Positions 18,197 to 39,565 of a DNA stretch of 64,000 bases are shown one piece after another. The stretch's first letter is position 1. Every line of letters starts with the position of its first letter. The notes beneath the pieces are model-generated. The model worked only from the letters and a program-made list of their open reading frames with translations, did not search any database and had not been told where the DNA came from. The translations under genes were made by a program, and so were the position numbers. Source of the stretch: Cetorhinus maximus (taxonomy: Eukaryota); the NCBI RefSeq assembly GCF_964194155.1, contig NC_135901.1, positions 868,001 through 932,000 on the forward strand, in the 5' to 3' direction.

Positions 18197-19267
18197 TTAG
18201 CAGGTTGTTTGACTGAGCAAATCCTTCCCACACATTGAGCAGGTGAACGGCCTCTCCCCAGTGTGAACTCGCCGGTGTGTCAGCAGATTCCTTTTACTTT
18301 TAAATCTCTTCTCACAGTGAGAACACTTAAAAGGTCTATGATCAGTGTGAACAAGTTGGTGTGTAGTAAGATGAGATGTCTGAGTGAATCTCTTGCTGCA
18401 CACAAGGCAGGTGTATGGTTTCTCCCCAGAGTGAACTCGCTGGTGTATCACAAGGTCAGATGAATCAATGAATTCCTGTCCACATTGACTGCAGGTGAAT
18501 GGCCTCTCCCCAGTGTGAACTCGATGGTGTCTCACCAGGTGGGCTAACCGAGTGAATCTCTTCCCACAGATAGAGCAGGTGAATGGCCTCTCCCCAGTGT
18601 GAGTTTGTTGGTGTTTCAGAAGATCCTTTTTGCTTTTAAATGTCTTCTCACAGTCAGAACAATGAAAAGGTCTCTGATCAGTGTGAACAAATTGGTGTGT
18701 CAGAAGGTGGGATGAACAATTGAATCTCTTACTACACACGGAGCAGGTGAATGGCCTCTCCCCAGTGTGAGTGCGTTCGTGGTTCAGTAAATCCTTTTTG
18801 CTTTTAAAGCTCTTCTCACAGTCACAACATTCAAAAGGTCTCTTGTCAGTGTGAACAAGTTTGTGTGTCAGGAGGTGGGATGACTGAGTGAATCCCTTCC
18901 CACACACTGAGCAGGTGAATGGCCTCTCCCCAGTGTGAGTGCGTTGGTGTGTCAGTAGATCCTTTCTGCTTTTAAAGCTCTTCTCACAGTCAGAACATTT
19001 AAGTGGTCTCTCATCAGAGTGAGCCCGATGGTGAGTCTGGAGGTTTGATAAAGCATTAAATCCCTTCCCACATTCAAGGCAGGTGAATGACCTCTCACCA
19101 GTATGAACATGCTGGTGTGTGTAGAGGCTGGATGACTGAGTGAATCCCTTCCCACACACAGAGCAGGTGAACGGTCTCTCCCCAGTGTGACTGCGTCGAT
19201 GAGTTTCCACCTCAGATGGGGAATTGAATCCCTTCCCACAGTCCCCACATTTCCACGGTTTCCCCAT
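18197..19267 (-). CDS. C2H2 zinc-finger protein F, 12 intact fingers; 13th broken by a 1-nt frameshift
   Basis: 356-aa ORF starting at ACC ATG G; acceptor at 19616/19617 with decayed upstream fingers. Confidence 0.85.
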   Translation of the reverse strand: MGKPWKCGDCGKGFNSPSEVETHRRSHTGERPFTCSVCGKGFTQSSSLYTHQHVHTGERSFTCLECGKGFNALSNLQTHHRAHSDERPLKCSDCEKSFKSRKDLLTHQRTHTGERPFTCSVCGKGFTQSSHLLTHKLVHTDKRPFECCDCEKSFKSKKDLLNHERTHTGERPFTCSVCSKRFNCSSHLLTHQFVHTDQRPFHCSDCEKTFKSKKDLLKHQQTHTGERPFTCSICGKRFTRLAHLVRHHRVHTGERPFTCSQCGQEFIDSSDLVIHQRVHSGEKPYTCLVCSKRFTQTSHLTTHQLVHTDHRPFKCSHCEKRFKSKRNLLTHRRVHTGERPFTCSMCGKDLLSQTTC

Positions 19268-20069
19268 GGTGCGGGTGTCCTTGTGTCTCTCCAGGTTGCG
19301 TGGTTAGTTGTACCCAGGCCACACACATACAATATGTGTACAGTCTCTCCCCACTGTGATGTTTTTTCAGGCTGTGTAACTGGTTAAAACTCTTTCCACA
19401 GTCAATTCACTGCAACACTGTCACTCGGGTGTGTGTCTGTCTTCATGCTTTTCCAGTCACATTTATGTTTGAAATCTTTTCTCACAGACAAACATTCCTC
19501 CTTCCACATTCAAAGGCCGATGACATTCAGGCCCTGGTGGAGCAATTGTCTCTGTCAGATCTTGATGTGATGTTTGGTTTGAATTTCCCATCTGCAAATC
19601 AAACCCTCCGAATACCCTGTAAAAAGAGTTTAATTTGAAATACTCAAAATATGCAATGCACAAACAGGCCATTCTGTCCAACTATTCTGCTAGTTTTATG
19701 CTTCTCCTCCCATTCCATCCAAATTATCTCAGCCTTTCAGTTTATCTTTCTAATCCCTTTTCTCTCACGTACTCATCTAGTTTCCTGTTGAAATTATCAG
19801 TTTTCGTCCCTCAATGGTTTCCTGTGAGTTCCACATCCTCACCACTCTCTGAGTAAAGAAATTTCAAGTGGAAACATTGTCTCCATATCTACTCCATCCA
19901 ACCCATTGATCATTGTAAAGACCTCCATCAGCTCACTGTTCACTCTTCCTTTTCTCAAGAAAAAAAGCCCCAATCCAAACTTTCCCAACGCCTGTAATTT
20001 TTTTTTGGTTTCCAAAACCCATCCCCCTGTCAGTTCAGGATAGAAATTCACAACATTCTCTCCTCCTGC

Positions 20070-23110: not shown

Positions 23111-23270
23111 ATGATGATGATGATGATGGTGATGGCGATCATTACTATTATTTTATGTCTATATAACAAAGAAACAGTGGAAAGTGGGAGGGATCCTCTT
23201 GTGACAGTTAATGAGGAAAGTAATGCCACACTAACCTGCACCTTTAAATTGAGGAATCGTAGACCTCAAC
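23111..23270 (+). pseudogene. Truncated Ig-superfamily V-like fragment with a hydrophobic leader-like start
   Basis: MMMMMMVMAIITIILCLYNKETVESGRDPLVTVNEESNATLTCTF resembles V-domain strands A'-B; no Trp or second Cys follows. Confidence 0.4.
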
Positions 23271-23513
23271 GATATAGTCAGAAGGTCAGTAAACCTCCAC
23301 CATGTCACACAGGAATGTTATTCCCACTCGGTCTGTAACAGTGGAACCATTCCCCCTGTAAGCAGACTGACTGTAGCCCAGTTCGGGGTGTTTCCATTCA
23401 CTGATATAAGGAGGTGAGAACATCCTGAGACACGACAGCAGATTATTGAGGGTGGGGTTTAGAACGGTTGTCTTCAAATATCCAGCTCTCCTTTCACAGA
23501 GCAGATAGAGACA

Positions 23514-23968
23514 ATGCGGCTCCTCAGCATCTGAATTGTGCGGGGTGCGTTTCTGACAGGTAATTATGGGTTAAACACATTTACTTCTTTAATTAGTTTT
23601 CTGAACATTATTTGAGCTAGAATTTTTAAAACCCGCAGGACTGAGTTTTTCCTGTTCGAACATTTTCTTCAGATCTGAGCCTTGGAGATTCTGTCACTCA
23701 ACCTCTGTCCTCGGGAAGTTACATTAGAAGGAAAAGTGGTGACTTTGCACTGTCTCTATGGGGGCACACGGAGCATCAATTATTTATACTGGTCCCGGCA
23801 TCCTCCAGACACACAGCCCAAGTTTATTCTGATGAAATACACCAGCGGTTATGCAGATAAAGCAGATTTTACAACAGCTCGTTTCTCAGCAGAGCTTAAG
23901 TTCACCATGTTGACTCTTTGAGGGCTACAACTGACAGACATTGCAGAGTGTTACTGCTCCCCGAGGCT
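23514..23968 (+). pseudogene. T-cell receptor alpha/delta-type V pseudogene 1 (leader 23514-23559, V exon 23673-23968)
   Basis: 46-nt phase-1 leader MRLLSI*IVRGAFLT with GT donor; AG acceptor; DLSLGDSVTQP/EVTLEGKVVTLHCLY...YLYWSRHPPDTQPKFIL...RFSAEL...LTL*GLQLTDIAECYC; stops, a frameshift and a deletion. Confidence 0.88.
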
Positions 23969-24007
23969 CTCAGTGACAGAAACCAGTGAAACTCTCAAAC
24001 AGAAACT
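23969..24007 (+). other. 23-bp-spacer recombination signal sequence (degenerate heptamer)
   Basis: CTCAGTG + exactly 23 nt + ACAGAAACT directly after the V exon. Confidence 0.85.
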
Positions 24008-24500
24008 CCCCTCGCTCTAGATACCTGGGCTCCAGCTGCTGACGCCTGATATAAGGGCGATCAGATGCTGACACGGTGCTGAGTCACGCTGCTGTGAGCT
24101 GACACACACTGAGATGGAGACAGGAAGCAGCCCCTTGTGTGAAGGGCTCACAACAGACTGATTCTGTGACACTGAGGAATGTTCTTGAGTGTCAGAAATC
24201 GTTGTCTCTGTGCTGATCTGAATATTGAGCCATGATTTTAAGGAGATAAATATTTGATCAGAAGCAGGAAGGAAGGTTTAACTTGTACATTTTTTCTCTG
24301 ATGGGTCTGTCTATCCGATTGGATTCTTCAATTTGTTTTCTTGGCTGCTCCTGGAGACAGTTGTGTGATAGTTTGACCCGAGGTTAATTTGATTTCCTCT
24401 AGATCTGTGTCTGAGCGCCTGACAGCCACATTATGGCTGTATCTGCCGAGATTCTATCTGACACCCAACAGACAGGAGCGCCCAGCCACAGTCCAAAGGT

Positions 24501-24539
24501 AGGTTTTGTACAGAGGTGAGACAGTTTTCCATCATTATG
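24501..24539 (-). other. 23-bp-spacer recombination signal sequence (degenerate heptamer)
   Basis: Minus strand CATAATG + exactly 23 nt + ACAAAACCT after YYCALSQT. Confidence 0.88.
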
Positions 24540-24988
24540 AGTCTGAGAAAGAGCGCAGTAATACACGGCACATTCAGCCAGCTGCAGCCCCGAAACAGTT
24601 AAACTGGTGAATTTAGTTGTGGCCTGGAGCTCAGATGAGAAACGAATTCCGAAGTCATCTTCTGTCTGTTGTTGTTCATCCCAAGACCATCTCCACACAA
24701 CAAACTGGAGTTCCTTGTCTGGTTGTTGCCAGCACCAATATAAATAATACAAGTTTTATGCAGTGCTATGGGTACATATTGAAGTGATTGTTCCACCTTC
24801 TCTCACGCTCTTTGATGCCTTGGGCTGAGTAACTGAATCTCCAATGTAACATGCGTTCAGGAAGAAGACAAGACCGAGTATTAAAAAGTGAAACAATATT
24901 AACACTTTAGTTTGAATACAGTACGACTGGAGTCATCCTTATCGAATATAAACATCCTAAGCACAACCCAGATGCTCAATATCTCCCT
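24540..24988 (-). pseudogene. T-cell receptor alpha/delta-type V pseudogene 2 (leader 24943-24988, V exon 24540-24853)
   Basis: GDSVTQPKASKSVREGGTITSICTHSTA*NLYYLYWCWQQPDKELQFVVWR...RFSSELQATTKFTSLTVSGLQLAECAVYYCALS; TAA at 24756-24758; leader (R)EILSIWVVLRMFIF with ATG>AGG, donor GT>AT, acceptor AG>CG. Confidence 0.9.
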
Positions 24989-27320: not shown

Positions 27321-29200
27321 TGAAAATTCCTTTTAGAGGGGATTAGAAGCCGTGGGGCACGAGGTGGAATTATAGACAGCAAACTCTTTGTTACTTCTGA
27401 ATATTTATTCTGCACTGATATTGGTGGCTTTTGAAGCTCTTTTTCCAGGGTATTAGAAGAGGAAGGATTTACAGATGAGAAACTCAAACCAAACATCACA
27501 ATAAGATCTGACAGAGTCACTCGATTCATCAGAACCTGAATATCATCAGCATCTTAATGTGGAAGGTAAAAAGCTGCAAATGCAACTTGTCTTTTGCACT
27601 GACATGCTGGGCATCATCATTGAGGTTGGAGTTGTTTGTGGAGCCTCCTCCTCCAGTGAGTTGTTTAATTGTCCACCGCCATTCACCACTGGATGTGGCA
27701 GGACAGCAAAGCTTAGATCTAACCTATTGGGATCATTTAGCTCTGTCTGTTGCATTCTGCTTCCGCTGTTTGACATGTCTGTAGTCCTGTGTTGTATCTT
27801 CACCAGGCGGATGCCTCATTTCTCAATATGCCTGGCGCTGCCACACATTTTTTAAATTCATTCATGGGATGTGAGAATCACTGGCTAAGCCAACATTTAT
27901 TGCCCATCCCTAATTGCCCTTGAGGAGATGGTGATGAGCTGCCTTCATGAACCGCTGCAGTCCATCACTGTTTCTTGAACTACTGCAGTCCGCTGCTCTC
28001 CTACACTCCTCATTGAACCAGGGTTAATTCCTAAGCTTGATGGTAATGGCAGAAATGAGGGATAGGCTGGGCCATGAGCTTACACATTGTGGTTGAATAC
28101 AATTCTGCTGCTGCTGATGGCTCACAGCGCCTCATGGATGTCTAATTTTGAGCTGCTGGATCCTCTTTGAATCTATTTCATTCAGCACAGCGGTAGTGCC
28201 ACAGAACATGATGGAGGGTATCCATAGTGTGTGAAGACAGCACTTGGCCCACCTGACTAGTCCAGTGATATCTTTCTGCACTCTTACAGCTTTTATTTTT
28301 ATTGTTAACCAGTACTGAGGCCTGCAGAACATCACTGGAAACAGCCTTCCATTCACAAAAACACACATTGACCATGCACCACCGCTTCCTGCCATTAGCC
28401 AATTTTGCATCCAATTTGCCACTCCTTCTAGGGTGCTATGAGCTTTTACTTTCCTGCCCAGTCTGCCATGTGGGATCTTGGTCAATGTGGAGAAAATGTT
28501 TCCACGTGTGAGAGAATCCAAAACTCGGGGCCAGAAATACAAGACAGTTACTGAGGAATCCAATAAGGAGAAATGTGTTCACTCTGAGATTGGTTAGAAT
28601 GTGAAACTCGTTGACACAGGAAGTGATTGAGGCAAAATGCTTAGATGTTTCAAAAGGAAACTAACTGATTACATGAGAGAAAAGGGAATAGAAAGATAAG
28701 CTGAAAGGCTGACTTGAAGCAGATGGAATGGAAGGGGATGAGTTTGGAGCATAAATATGGGCACAAACTTGCTGGACTGAATGGTCTGTTTCTGTGCTCT
28801 ATATTCTAAGTAATTCTGTGTGAACTCCTTTTACAGGGGATTAGAACGGGAGGATTTACAGACAGGAAACTCAAGTCAAATATCACATCAGGATCTGACA
28901 GAGTCATTCGATTCATCAGGACCTGAATATCATCGGTCTTTGATTGTGAAAGGGGAAATGTTTGCGTGTTCGGTCTGCGGGAAAATATTTCAAACATCAG
29001 TGTGACTGGAAAAGCATTGAGACACACACACCCGAGTGAGAGTGTTCCAGTGAACTGACTGTGGAAAGATCTTTAACCAGTTACAGATCCTGAAAAAACA
29101 TCACACCATTCACAGTGGGGAGAGACCGTACACGTGTTCTGTGTGTGGATGAGGCTTCAACTGATCGTCCAACCTGGAGAGACACAAGGACACTCACACC

Positions 29201-30043
29201 ATGGAGAAACCGTGGAAATGTGGGGACTGTGGGAAGGGATTCAATTACCCGTCTGAGCTGGACACTCATCAACGCAATCACACTGGAGAGAAACCCTGTA
29301 AATGCGGGGACTGTGGGAAGGGATTCAATTATCCATCCCAACTGGAGATTCATCGGCGCAGTCACACCGGGGAGAAACCATTCACCTGCTCCATGTGCAG
29401 GAAGGGATTCACAGAGTTATCCAAGCTGCACATGCACATGCGAGTTCACACCGGGGAGAGGCCATTTTCCTGCTTGGTGTGTGGGAAGGAATTTGCACAG
29501 TTATCCACCCTGCTGACACACCGACGTGTTCACACTGACATGAGACCTTTTAAATGTTCAGAATGTGAGAAGAGTTTTAAAAGCAGAAGTGAGGTGGTAA
29601 CACACCAACGCACTCACACTGGGGAGAGGCCATTCACCTGTTCTCTGTGTGGGAAGGGATTCACTCAGTCTTCCACGTTGCAGAAGCACCAGAGAGTTCA
29701 CACTGGGGAGAGGCCGTTCATCTGCTCCATGTGTGAGAAGGGATTCACTCAGTCTTCCAGTCTCATGGAGCACCAGAGAGTTCACACTGGCGAGAAGCCA
29801 TTCACCTGCTCGGAATGCGGTAAGGGATTCACCCATTCATCCCACCTGCTGACACACCAGCGAATTCATACTGGAGAGAAGCCATTCACCTGCTCTGTGT
29901 GTGGGAAGGGATTCACTCAAAAATCAAGCCTGCTGGGACACCAGCGACTTCACACTGGGGAGAGACCGTTCACCTGCTCTGAGTGTGGGAAGGGATTCAC
30001 TCGGTCATCCAACCTGGTGACTCACAAGCGAATTCACAAGTGA
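29201..30043 (+). CDS. C2H2 zinc-finger protein G, 10 fingers
   Basis: 280-aa ORF from ACC ATG G; acceptor at 28836/28837 with decayed upstream fingers; AATAAA at 30181. Confidence 0.88.
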
Positions 30044-34750: not shown

Positions 34751-35143
34751 TGGTGAGGAATGGATGAACGGGACTTGGTGTGAAAAAGCACAGGGGCAGA
34801 GTTTTGGATGATTACATGTTTCCACGTGGGGGTGGGATGAATATGAGAGTCTGGCCTGGAATGTATTGGAATCGTCAAGTCTAAAGGTAACACGGGCGTG
34901 GATTAGGGTTTCAGCATCAGATGGTCTAGGGTGGGGTTGAGACAGGCGACGTTATGGAGGTTGAAATATCTGGTATTAGTGATGGTGTAGATATGTGGTC
35001 AGAAACTCATCTTGGGGTTAAATCTGACACCATGATTGTGAAGAGTGTTGTTCAGCCTCAGACAGTTCCCAGGGAGAGGGATGGACTCAGTGGTTAGGGA
35101 ACGGAATTTGTAGTGGTGACTGAAGACAATGGCTTTGGTCTTC

Positions 35144-38100
35144 GAGGTGGTGGGCGGGCGACTCCTCGTAGCAGACGTAATGTACAAGAACGCTCCACTC
35201 CGGTTAATTAACGTGTATGGCCCGGCACAAGGGGCTGAGCGGCTGGAGGTTTTTCAGCAGCTCCCACTGCTGCTGGCGACCTCCAGGCCGGTCATTCTGG
35301 GCGGGGACTTCAACTGCATCATCGATGCGGCTGGACGATCCGGCAGGGCCGGAAGCAGATTGGACGCTACGTCCAGATCCCTGATGGAAACAGTTAAGGA
35401 TGCCAAGCTGCACGACGTCTTCAGCAACCCTGCAGACGGAGCGCAGCGTAGATACACCGGGTCGCGGCCAGACGGGTCCATTCGTTCCAGGATAGACTTC
35501 CTGTTTGTGTCCCGTGCATTCACAGTCAGATCCACCGAGGTCAAGCCGGTGTTCTTCTCTGACCACTGCCTCCTACTGGCGGACTGCCACTTGGAGAAGG
35601 ACCTGAGGGTGGGCAGGGGGGCATGGAAGCTAAATGTGCAACTGCTGACCCCAGAGAACATTGAGGAGCTCAAGAGGGATTACAAAGGTTGGAGAACCGT
35701 GAAACCCCTCTTTGAGTCCCTGACACACTGGTGGGAAGTGATCAAGGGAAGCATCAAGAGGTTTTTCATCCGCAAAGGCACCCAGAAAGCTAGAAAGGAA
35801 CAGAGGGAAATGTCCCGACTCCAGAAAAAGATGCAGAATCTGCTCCGGCTGCAGTCGATGGGGGTCGATGTCAAGGAGGAGCTCCAAGAGGTGAAGGGCC
35901 AGCAAGCCTCGCACTTTGCCTCGGAGGCCTCCAAGATCATCTTCCGTTCCAGGGTCCGCTCCGTGGAGCAGGATGAGACGTGCTCACGTTTCTTCTTCCA
36001 AAAGGTACACAGAGAGCGCTCTGTGATCAGCAGCCTGAAGGAAGAAGACGGCTCAGTAAAGTCATCACGGTCCGACATTCTGAGGATCAGCAAATCCTTT
36101 TATGCCGGACTGTATGACGTGAAGCCCACGGACATAACGGCCTCCCAGTCCTTCCTGTCCTCTATCACGGAGGTCTTAGACCACAGTACACGGGAGAGCC
36201 TAGACAAACCGCTAACTCCTGATGAACTGACTAAGGCCCTCGAGTCCTTCGAGAAGAGTAAAACTCCCGGAAGCGACGGCTTGCCGGCGGAGTTGTATTC
36301 GGCTCTGTGGGACTTGATCGGCCCAGACCTGCTAGGAGTGTACGAGAGTATGCTCCTGGCCGGTAGTATGTCAGAATCCATGAGGAAAGGCATCATCACC
36401 CTCATCTACAAGCACAAGGGGGAAAGGGAGGAAATTAGAAATTGGCGACCCATTTCACTGTTGAATATGGACTATAAGATTCTGTCCAAGGTCATCGCCA
36501 ATCGGGTCAAATCCGCTCTGGAATTGGTGATTCACCCTGACCAGACCTGCTCTGTGCCAGGCAGGAAGATCTCTGACAGCCTGGCGCTGCTCAGGGATAC
36601 GATTGCCTATGTACAGGACAGGGGTGTGGATACCTGCCTCATCAGCTTGGATCAGGAGAAGGCCTTTGACAGAATATCGCACACCTACATGGGGGATGTG
36701 CTCTCCAAAATGGGGTTTGGGGAGGGAATTCGAAATTGAATCCAACTGCTCTACACTAACATCAGTAGCGCAGTCTCAATCAATGGGTGGGAAACAGATA
36801 GCTTTCTGATTAAATCTGGAGTCAGGCAGGGCTGTCCTCTCTCGCCTGTCCTTTTCGTGTGTTGCATAGAACCCTTTGCCGAGTCCATCAGGAAGGATCC
36901 GGGCATAAGAGGAGTGACGATCCCAGGCAGTGGAGGCACTCAGGTAAAAGCCTCCCTGTACATGGACGACGTCGCCGTCTTCTGCTCGGATCCGCTGTCG
37001 GTGCGCAGACTGATGCACGTCTGCGACCAGTTCGAACTGGCCTCGGGAGCCAAGGTAAATCGTGGGAAGAGCGAGGCCATGTTCTTTGGGAACTGGGCTG
37101 ACCGATCCTTTGTCCCCTTCACTGTCAGGGCTGACGGCCTGAAGGTGCTGGGGATATGGTTCGGAGGGACCGGGGCATGCGTTAGAAACTGGAAGGAGCG
37201 AGTGGCTATGGTGAAAAGGAAACTGGGCATGTGGGAGCGACGCTCCCTCTCCATTGCGGGTAAGAACCTGGTCATCAGGTGTGAGGTACTCTCGCTGTTG
37301 CTGTACGTGGCGCAGGTCTGGCCCATTCCAGACTCCTGCGCGATGGCGATCACTCGAGCCATCTTCCGCTTTATCTGGAGGTCGAAAATGGATCGTGTCC
37401 GCAGGGACGCGATGTACAAGCCTCTAGATAAAGGGGGAAAAAACGTGCCCAACATCGCCCTCATACTGATGGCCACCTTTGTGTGTGGCTGCATCAAGCG
37501 GTGCGTAGACCCTCAGTACGCAAACACCAAGTGTCACTACGTGCTGAGGTTCTACCTGTCCCCGGTGTTGCGAAGGATGGGTCTGGCCACGCTGCCGCGG
37601 AACGCTCCAAGTAGTTGGACCGTGCCGTACCACCTGTCCCTGGTGGAAAAGTTTATGCAGAAAAACACCTTGGACCACAGGTCCATCAGGCAGTGGTCAG
37701 CACGTAACGTCCTAGAGGCCCTGAGGGAAAAGGAGAGGGTGGACCCTGTGGGATGGTTCCCCGAGCAGACTGTCAAAGTCATTTGGCAGAATGCCTCATC
37801 GCCAGAACTTTCCAACAAGCACCAAGACGTAGCTTGGCTGGTGGTGAGAAAGGCCCTCCCCGTTAGATCCTTCCTACACGCCAGGAGGCTCACCCCCTCT
37901 GCACGTTGCCCTCGAGGTGGCTGTGGTGGGGAAGAGACCGTTGTTCACCTCCTTGTGGATTGTGCCTTTGCAAAGAAAGTCTGGAGAGAGATGCAGTGGT
38001 TGCTGTCGAGGTTCATCCCGAGCAGTTCTGTGACACAGGACTCTGTGCTCTACGGGCTGTTCCCAGGGACACACACCGAGACAAACATCAACTGCAGCTG

Positions 38101-38525
38101 GAGGATCATCAACTCGGTGAAAGAGGCGCTTTGGTCTGCCCGAAACTTGTTGGTCTTCCAGCACAAAGAGTTGTCCCCGACCGATTGTTGCGGACTGGCA
38201 CAATCCAAAGTCCAGGACTACGTGCTGAGGGACGCACTAAAGCTTGGGGCAGCTGCCGCAAAGGCGCAATGGGGAAGGGTCGCTGTCTAAGACCTTTCTA
38301 CCACAGCGCACCGAGAGACTGGGAACTGTTTAGAGCCCCTCGGGCTGTACAGATCAAAATGAAAGGCTGTAAATGATTGTAATATTGTTTGTACTGATGC
38401 ACCTGGTGATACATTTTGTAAAAGTTTAACCTGGATTGTACCCTTGTAATGTTGTTTTTGAAATGGTTTTGAATGTGATTGAAGATAATTTATGAATAAA
38501 GTATATTTTTACAAAAAAAAAAAAA
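35144..38525 (+). mobile_element. Young 5'-truncated Tx1/L1-clade non-LTR retrotransposon (APE-RT-zinc finger ORF2)
   Basis: GDFN, SRID, SDH endonuclease motifs; GVRQGCPLSP and YMDD RT motifs; C-terminal CPRGGC...HLLVDC; single in-frame TGA at 36737-36739; AATAAA at 38495, poly(A), 16-bp TSD AATGGCTTTGGTCTTC (35128-35143, 38526-38541). Confidence 0.95.
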
Positions 38526-39565
38526 AATGGCTTTGGTCTTCCCAATTTTTAATTGGAGGAAATTTCTGCTCCAGTACCGGGTGTTAGATAAGCAGTTTGA
38601 TAATTTAGTAACAGTGGAGGAATGGAGAGGGATGGTGGTGAGGTAGAGCTGGGCATTGTCAGTGTACATGTGAAAACTAACACGGTGCTTTTGGATGATG
38701 TCACCTACTGGCAGCATGTAGATGAGAAATAGGAGGGGCCAAGGATAGATCCTTGAGGGACACCAAGTTCAAGGGCTTTGGAGAGGAAAGGAAATTGGAG
38801 ATGGGGAGTAGGTTGCAACGACAGTGGAGTGAAGGGTTATTTTAGGATGTATGGTGATGGTGCAGTTAAAGATGAGGACAATATCAAGAGGAGAGAAAAC
38901 TGTTAACAATATCAGCTAACATGGGGAAGATAGATGGTCTAGTGTATTGAGAATAGGGTGAATGGAGCAGAAAGTGGGTCTCAGAGACAAGATGAGCACT
39001 GAGAGGGAGATAGAAGAGAAACTGGAGAAAGATGTGAGTTCAGGGCCCGGACAAACGGGAACTTTAGAGACAATTTGGCCCGGTGGGCTAGTGGAAGGGA
39101 GGGAAGCAGCAGAGACAGCTGATCAGAGGGTCTGAATCTTTGTGATAGAGAAGATCCATGAGCTTGTTGTTGGAGGTGAGGATGGAGGAGAGAGCACTTC
39201 AAAAGTAACAAACTTATGTTTGAGATATTAAAAAGATTCAACACACTGTGTTTAGTGCAAAACTGATTTATTTGACTTTTATCCATAACCTTAACCCCTA
39301 AAATTGGGCTGGAGTTTATTAACATCAGCAGAAACAGAATCCAATGAATATGGTTCAGTCCTGAATGTGGTTAGCAGCAAAATCCCATCACTGTGGAAAC
39401 TTGTGAACTTGCTGGTGTTTCAGCAGGGTGGATGACTGAGTAAACCTCTTCCCACACTGAGAGCAGCTGAAAGACCTCACCCCTGAGTGGACTCACTCAT
39501 GAACAGTGAGTTCAGATGATTGCATGAACCCAGTCCCATACTGAGAACACCTGAACGGTTTCTCA

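Follow-up and report, generated by a model that had tools for sequence, protein, structure and literature searches.

The locus analysed here raises the question of whether two V-like units embedded among zinc-finger genes are TCR V segments and how they came to lie there. The window, that is, the whole 64-kb stretch of DNA that was analysed (C24:868,001-932,000), belongs to C24, a scaffold of 65.2 Mb in a shark genome of 3.99 Gb. Positions in Mb are C24 coordinates, and small coordinates are positions within the window. The plus-strand V unit is termed V1 and the minus-strand V unit, which faces it, V2. Together with a third fragment, V1 and V2 are very probably inactivated V segments that were carried as passengers in zinc-finger block duplications on the chromosome of the receptor locus itself, and the pair most likely represents unremarkable debris of duplication.

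Structure and identity of the V1/V2 pair

Both units are composed of a split leader, an intron, and a V exon that finishes after the second cysteine, with the splice sites of V2 mutated. A sequence-only reading of this DNA had placed two V units here, with 46-nt leaders and exact 23-nt spacers, and these features are present in both V1 and V2.

23411-23513, plus strand: V1 upstream region, homologous to DNA 5′ of intact V genes; putative promoter
23514-23559, plus strand: V1 leader exon, 46 nt, phase 1; codon 7 is an in-frame stop
23560-23672, plus strand: V1 intron; GT donor and AG acceptor intact
23673-23968, plus strand: V1 exon, a pseudogene of TCR alpha/delta V type; FR1 is frameshifted, and a 12-base deletion and an FR3 stop are also present
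23969-24007, plus strand: V1 recombination signal, 23-nt spacer; heptamer with 1 mismatch (second base), nonamer with 2 mismatches
24501-24539, minus strand: V2 recombination signal, 23-nt spacer; heptamer with 2 mismatches (third base lost), nonamer with 2 mismatches
24540-24844 (about), minus strand: V2 exon, a pseudogene of TCR alpha/delta V type; the acceptor is deleted and CDR1 contains a stop
24943-24988, minus strand: V2 leader-like exon of 46 nt, with mutations in the start codon and in the splice donor

The signals at the V ends are not chance matches, since only seven signal-like sequences (at most 2 + 2 mismatches) are found in the window's 128 kb of strand, the V1 and V2 signals included; by our own arithmetic, a given V end would have such a sequence within 10 bases by chance with a probability of ~4e-4. 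The earlier description of "complete leader-intron-V-RSS units" holds for the layout, which is recognisable, but not for the sequence, in which stops, a frameshift, losses of start and splice sites, and heptamers lacking CAC are observed. In V1, the leader stop occupies a position that is Trp in the 25.5-Mb and 0.984-Mb relatives, the FR1 frameshift consists of one additional base, and the 3′ coding end reads CYCSPR rather than the typical YYCAL that had been invoked. In V2, AGG replaces the ATG start codon, AT replaces the GT donor, and a 10-base deletion removes the splice acceptor. Neither unit combines the open frame, the start and splice sites, and the CAC heptamer of a functional V segment. 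The CAC of the heptamer is required by RAG and is absent from both heptamers, so the V1/V2 pair would not rearrange; it would also yield no protein.

Pfam V-set scores of 28.7 bits for the V1 exon and 27.0 bits for the V2 exon exceed the cut-off of 26, and such scores alone cannot separate a TCR V from a V domain of the wider immunoglobulin superfamily (IgSF). The best PDB matches of V2 are mostly TCR alpha and delta chains. Phylogenetic placement was based on a tree of 78 V sequences and an AU test of 29 rows, TCR beta V being in neither and two nectin-like sequences (L302 and L303) having been removed from the AU rows by a motif filter. In the 78-sequence tree, V2 clades with the delta-chain V sequences P0001 and P0002, each a V joined to a C-delta-type constant domain, and with intact C24 V genes (support 99/91), and V1 clades with the alpha-chain V sequence P0003, a V joined to a C-alpha-type constant domain, and likewise with intact C24 V genes (support 95/95). 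V1 and V2 share one clade (99/94) that excludes the IgM VH, TAILV-like, IgL, and single-exon VJ rows. The names TAILV, NAR-TCR, IgW, and UrIg are used here as presumptive labels, assigned from sequence and layout rather than taken from a named database match. V2 is 54% identical to the V of P0002, and V1 is 48% identical to the V of P0003. V1 and V2 have the leader-intron-V-23-signal layout of these shark TCR alpha/delta V families and differ from them in that both the coding sequence and the signal are disabled.

The tree and the AU test support the assignment of V1 and V2 as TCR alpha/delta-type V pseudogenes. The sequence-only reading had named grouping with non-rearranging IgSF V domains as the outcome that would overturn this assignment, and the AU test rejects it: a tree constrained to unite V1 and V2 with four single-exon V/VJ domains is worse by 86 log-likelihood units (p-AU 2.4e-79). 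That the two units are IgSF V domains of this kind rather than TCR V segments is vanishingly improbable. It is refuted, within the sequences tested, by tree position and AU test, and it runs counter to the split leader, the exon end after the second cysteine, and the 23-spacer signal that V1 and V2 both possess. It also conflicts with the DNA homology to intact V genes, which spans the upstream region through the signal; the window segment 23411-23987 aligns with an intact V gene at 1.27 Mb at 72.7% aligned identity (E 2e-90).

The duplicated zinc-finger block

Around the V pair, the window contains a third V remnant, zinc-finger exons, and a LINE, all placed with respect to a segmental duplication.

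17433-47728, no strand: core of the young segmental duplication, common to the C24 copies; extends over 4578-53027 in comparison with the 3.41-Mb copy
18197-19303, minus strand: C2H2 zinc-finger exon co-duplicated with the V remnants; collinear at 0.367 and 0.984-0.990 Mb
23159-23299, plus strand: third V remnant, from a different C24 V family and limited to its 5′ part
29165-30043, plus strand: next C2H2 zinc-finger exon, within the young duplicated block
35128-38541, plus strand: LINE insertion with a 16-base target-site duplication; marker of copy history

The third remnant, overlooked in the sequence-only reading, shares 51% identity over 37 amino acids with an intact V of C24 (22.81 Mb; pairwise E 4e-10), and its 25 genome matches lie without exception on C24 or on unplaced contigs. 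The zinc-finger exon at 18197-19303 and the V remnants are collinear with a relic at 0.367 Mb (81-88% identity), and the same exon with a V1 relative is observed as an inverted copy at 0.984-0.990 Mb (86-96%). The collinearity at these two sites identifies the duplication unit as a zinc-finger gene plus V remnants. A tRNA cluster, also proposed to be part of this mixture, is not there, as ARAGORN and Rfam each find 0 tRNA genes in the window.

On C24, copies of the young block are found at 3.41 Mb (99.3% identity to the window), at 6.28 Mb (98.3-99.6%), and, in inverted orientation, at 13.5 Mb (98.2-99.6%) and 25.5 Mb (93-96%). The V pair is additionally present on three unplaced contigs, giving eight young copies in all, five of them on C24. 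The AGG start, AT donor, and CDR1 stop of V2 recur in all six aligned pseudogene copies, including that at 25.5 Mb; the FR1 region and the 12-base deletion of V1 recur in 8/8 young copies; and the FR3 stop of V1 is common to the window and the 13.5-Mb copy. Because most lesions are common to the copies, the most distant one included, V1 and V2 were likely dead before the young round of copying. An older family, with 84-87% identity, occupies nine C24 sites and four unplaced contigs, and in all 13 of these relics little survives beyond the third remnant, the V2 signal, and the 3′ end of V1. Among near-full-length matches to the V1-V2 spacer (21 of 40 scored), 14 are on C24, seven are on unplaced contigs, and none is on another chromosome.

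The best 150 scored matches for each V include no intact parent of the pair. The closest relatives of V1, at 0.984, 6.37, and 8.38 Mb, are broken and lack the nonamer, and the best intact relatives of V1 and V2 have only 55-62% protein identity; the source array is thus not among them. Since the duplications are recent (81-99.6% identity), the V pair says little about the organisation of an ancestral immune region, on which the sequence-only reading had expected it to bear.

The LINE is present in the window and at 13.5 Mb and is missing at 3.44, 6.30, and 25.49 Mb. Its presence and the FR3 stop ally the window with the 13.5-Mb copy, and the left flank of the window is common to the 3.41-Mb copy; on these grounds, the window is a mosaic, as would be expected of non-allelic recombination or conversion. 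The LINE in the window occupies the same insertion site as that at 13.5 Mb and is shorter by 1.87 kb of its 5′ part. In the 13.5-Mb element (13.518-13.519 Mb), the first ORF is long and is followed by the beginning of a second. In the older relics, the heptamer and nonamer of the V2 signal are intact or nearly so, with the V2 exon gone; such stray signals could misdirect RAG.

The receptor core and the V field on C24

C-delta and C-alpha each give a single match, at 14.233 and 14.050 Mb, respectively, both on the minus strand. Their assignment rests on the surrounding segments: 102 J-like segments and no D are found between C-alpha and C-delta (14.18-14.19 Mb left out), and J-delta, D, IgH-like V, and NAR-TCR-type cassettes are found above C-delta, at 14.24-14.36 Mb. 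The distance to TRAC and TRDC, which the sequence-only reading had proposed to map, is ~13.2 Mb from the V1/V2 window to this core, on the same scaffold and with at least one gap between. In 120 ten-kb stretches, the sole gap is a 200-N scaffold gap at 13.987 Mb, on the 3′ side of C-alpha and 63 kb from it; both the 13.2-Mb separation and the block order therefore depend on scaffolding. The local V/zinc-finger neighbourhood is robust to scaffolding because it recurs at 81-96% identity. An arrangement of several TCR clusters, each with its own C, was considered and ruled out, as C-delta and C-alpha each give a single match and the numerous C1 exons of C24 belong to IgH.

The stretch from 14,040,000 to 14,360,000 constitutes a complete core comprising C-alpha, ~102 J-alpha, C-delta, J-delta, and duplicated D-J units, which lie above C-delta, each with its own IgH-like V. 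At least three NAR-TCR-type cassettes are on the opposite strand, together with supporting V that have three tandem 23-spacer signals 62 bases apart.

For the two V clades, and among the matches listed, at least 147 distinct V positions in 45 groups extend from 0.17 to 25.5 Mb; among these, 114 of 147 are 3′ of C-alpha (62 on the plus and 52 on the minus strand) and 33 are 5′ of J-delta. Six-gene groups resembling the V array at 160,000-216,000 recur at about 4.1, 4.5, 5.7, 8.9, 11.8, 12.7, 13.3, 16.3, and 16.6 Mb. Among the best 150 C1-set matches, at least 49 IgM CH4-type exons are distinguished by length and score at 0.29-23.8 Mb, and all eight that were translated are IgM-type. Among the matches listed, these exons have a median spacing of 326 kb, and TCR V lie in 25 of the 48 intervals between them. 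One C24 CH4 exon is 94% identical to a named shark IgM chain. A database protein labelled Aeromonas veronii (P0012) is 93% identical to this shark IgM exon and is likely host contamination of the record. IgM-type VH exons germline-joined to D and J are observed at 8.70 and 20.88 Mb.

Non-IgM heavy-chain constant exons are found at 10.18 and 33.46 Mb. Those at 10.18 Mb, for which the database match gives no shark name, are putative IgW exons; the 33.46-Mb exon has as its best single-domain match 4q9c, a novel antigen receptor. PSMB5 is located at 10.27 Mb, and its exons match equally well there and on the unplaced contig C298, a sign of haplotype duplication among the unplaced contigs. An exon on C22 is presumably MHC class II-like, and the MHC appears to be on C22. 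Single-exon VJ domains are present at 35.42 Mb on C24, on contig C248, and at 6.74 Mb on C22; the C24 domain is a candidate UrIg2 and the C22 domain a candidate UrIg.

Within 738-982 kb, which contains 32 zinc-finger arrays, an in-frame screen for the two main V families finds no V matches besides the V pair, so the pair can be called stranded locally but not on C24 as a whole, where V groups and IgM clusters lie elsewhere. An IgM cluster is present at 704-719 kb, and V groups flank the window at 0.17-0.22, 0.98, and 1.06-1.27 Mb; several V genes at the latter two are intact and have near-perfect signals. Of the two origins offered by the sequence-only reading, interdigitation of the zinc-finger field with the TCR alpha/delta locus is borne out, in that the zinc-finger field alternates with TCR V arrays and IgM clusters along the scaffold that also has C-alpha and C-delta. 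Movement as orphons is correct insofar as the pair moved with a zinc-finger gene, but its location is not a foreign chromosome. In mammals, orphon V genes are non-functional copies moved by segmental duplication, usually onto other chromosomes. They lie outside the receptor locus, whereas V1 and V2 lie inside a dispersed field of V and IgM genes on the locus chromosome. A strict orphon, lying away from the V genes of its locus, was rejected as a description, since V groups and an IgM cluster flank the window.

Origin of the V pair and comparison with known loci

In the proposed mechanism, a piece of a V array would have come to adjoin a zinc-finger gene, after which the V genes would have lost function. 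The unit would then have been copied in at least two rounds, corresponding to identities of about 85% and 93-99.6%, likely via non-allelic recombination among similar zinc-finger, LINE, and Ig repeats.

An alternative is that the V pair is real and that assembly artefacts, in the form of haplotigs and mis-ordered contigs in a repeat-rich region, account for most of its copies and of its separation from the C genes. The copies do reach 99.6% identity, a scaffold gap separates the window from C-alpha, and single-copy PSMB5 is also on an unplaced contig, which is why double assembly of alleles may account for the unplaced copies and for some of the 99% copies. A diploid genome has two alleles per locus, yet eight young copies are observed with distinct flanks, indels, and LINE state, and the 25.5-Mb copy and the 13 older relics are too diverged to be alleles. 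All copies retain V remnants, the two examined closely retain the zinc-finger neighbour, and the gap is the only one in the stretches scanned. Artefact on this scale is therefore improbable. Retention for a purpose is less probable still, to the point of being very hard to credit: in this scenario the dead V segments would be kept as donors for AID-driven gene conversion of TCR alpha V, or as regulatory sequence for the zinc-finger genes. Shark TCR alpha is hypermutated by AID (as described in the portion of PMC5931798 drawn on here), and the unit has been copied many times; against this, the older relics lack most of both exons, and the lesions in leader, splice sites, frame, and signals are those expected under neutral decay. 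A protein identity of 55-62% to intact V genes would also be low for conversion donors.

The preferred reading, inactivated V segments duplicated with zinc-finger blocks, can be compared with other elasmobranch loci. In the portions of Flajnik et al. 2025 (PMC12227049) used here, the antigen receptor complex (AgRC) of four elasmobranchs is described as uniting IgM, IgW, IgNAR, TCR alpha/delta, and PSMB5 on one chromosome, where IgH clusters have some V exons of TCR alpha/delta type between them. Table S1 of that paper places white shark V genes, pseudogenes included, at 8.2-17.1 Mb among IgM genes and on the 3′ side of a plus-strand TCR alpha model, and catshark V about 29 Mb from psmb5. C24 resembles that AgRC in carrying IgH clusters together with TCR alpha/delta and PSMB5; in contrast to the AgRC as presented there, the V groups of C24 span 25 Mb, with the core between them, and its V remnants are copied with a zinc-finger gene. 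The main text of PMC12227049 has 0 mentions of "zinc" or "ZNF" and lists gene models rather than duplicons. Relative to those portions, co-duplication with zinc-finger genes and a layout on this scale were not found in print, V segments between IgH clusters having already been published. A report of V and zinc-finger co-duplication was likewise not found in the largely open-access literature covered. Verissimo et al. 2023 (PMC10751288), in the part consulted, describe shark MHC-Ia-like genes amid zinc-finger arrays. Their locus and the window are alike in that immune genes in elasmobranch genomes are encircled by many zinc-finger genes; theirs concerns the MHC, here apparently on C22, unlike the TCR/IgH chromosome C24.

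The V pair itself matters little and serves as a marker of the growth of the shark antigen receptor chromosome. V segments travelling with zinc-finger genes in duplicated blocks could explain how TCR V exons came to be dispersed among IgM clusters, as published. The C24 map also allows a direct test of the reach of RAG. In mammals, V(D)J recombination is known to reach over about 3 Mb. It is conceivable, albeit unlikely, that the 25-Mb field works as one locus in which very long inversions connect J with intact V that have perfect signals, lie as far as 14 Mb off, and in many cases are 3′ of C-alpha. If this is true, IgM clusters and TCR V arrays would have multiplied jointly, through zinc-finger duplicons, to either side of one D-J-C core, V(D)J recombination would operate over several-fold the mammalian distance, and the V pair would be dead fringe. 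Judging by orientation, the 62 plus-strand V positions 3′ of C-alpha could join by inversion, and the 52 minus-strand positions would have no stable chromosomal join. Between some distal intact V and the most similar copy near the core, the divergence is 3-5%. For the intact distal V at 1.27 Mb, the sequencing runs X16 and X17 give 0 contigs, and X13 and X15 give 70 and 59 short pieces, respectively, which speaks neither for nor against distal V use. At 160,000-216,000, a dense V array 14 Mb from J contains several intact genes with near-perfect signals.
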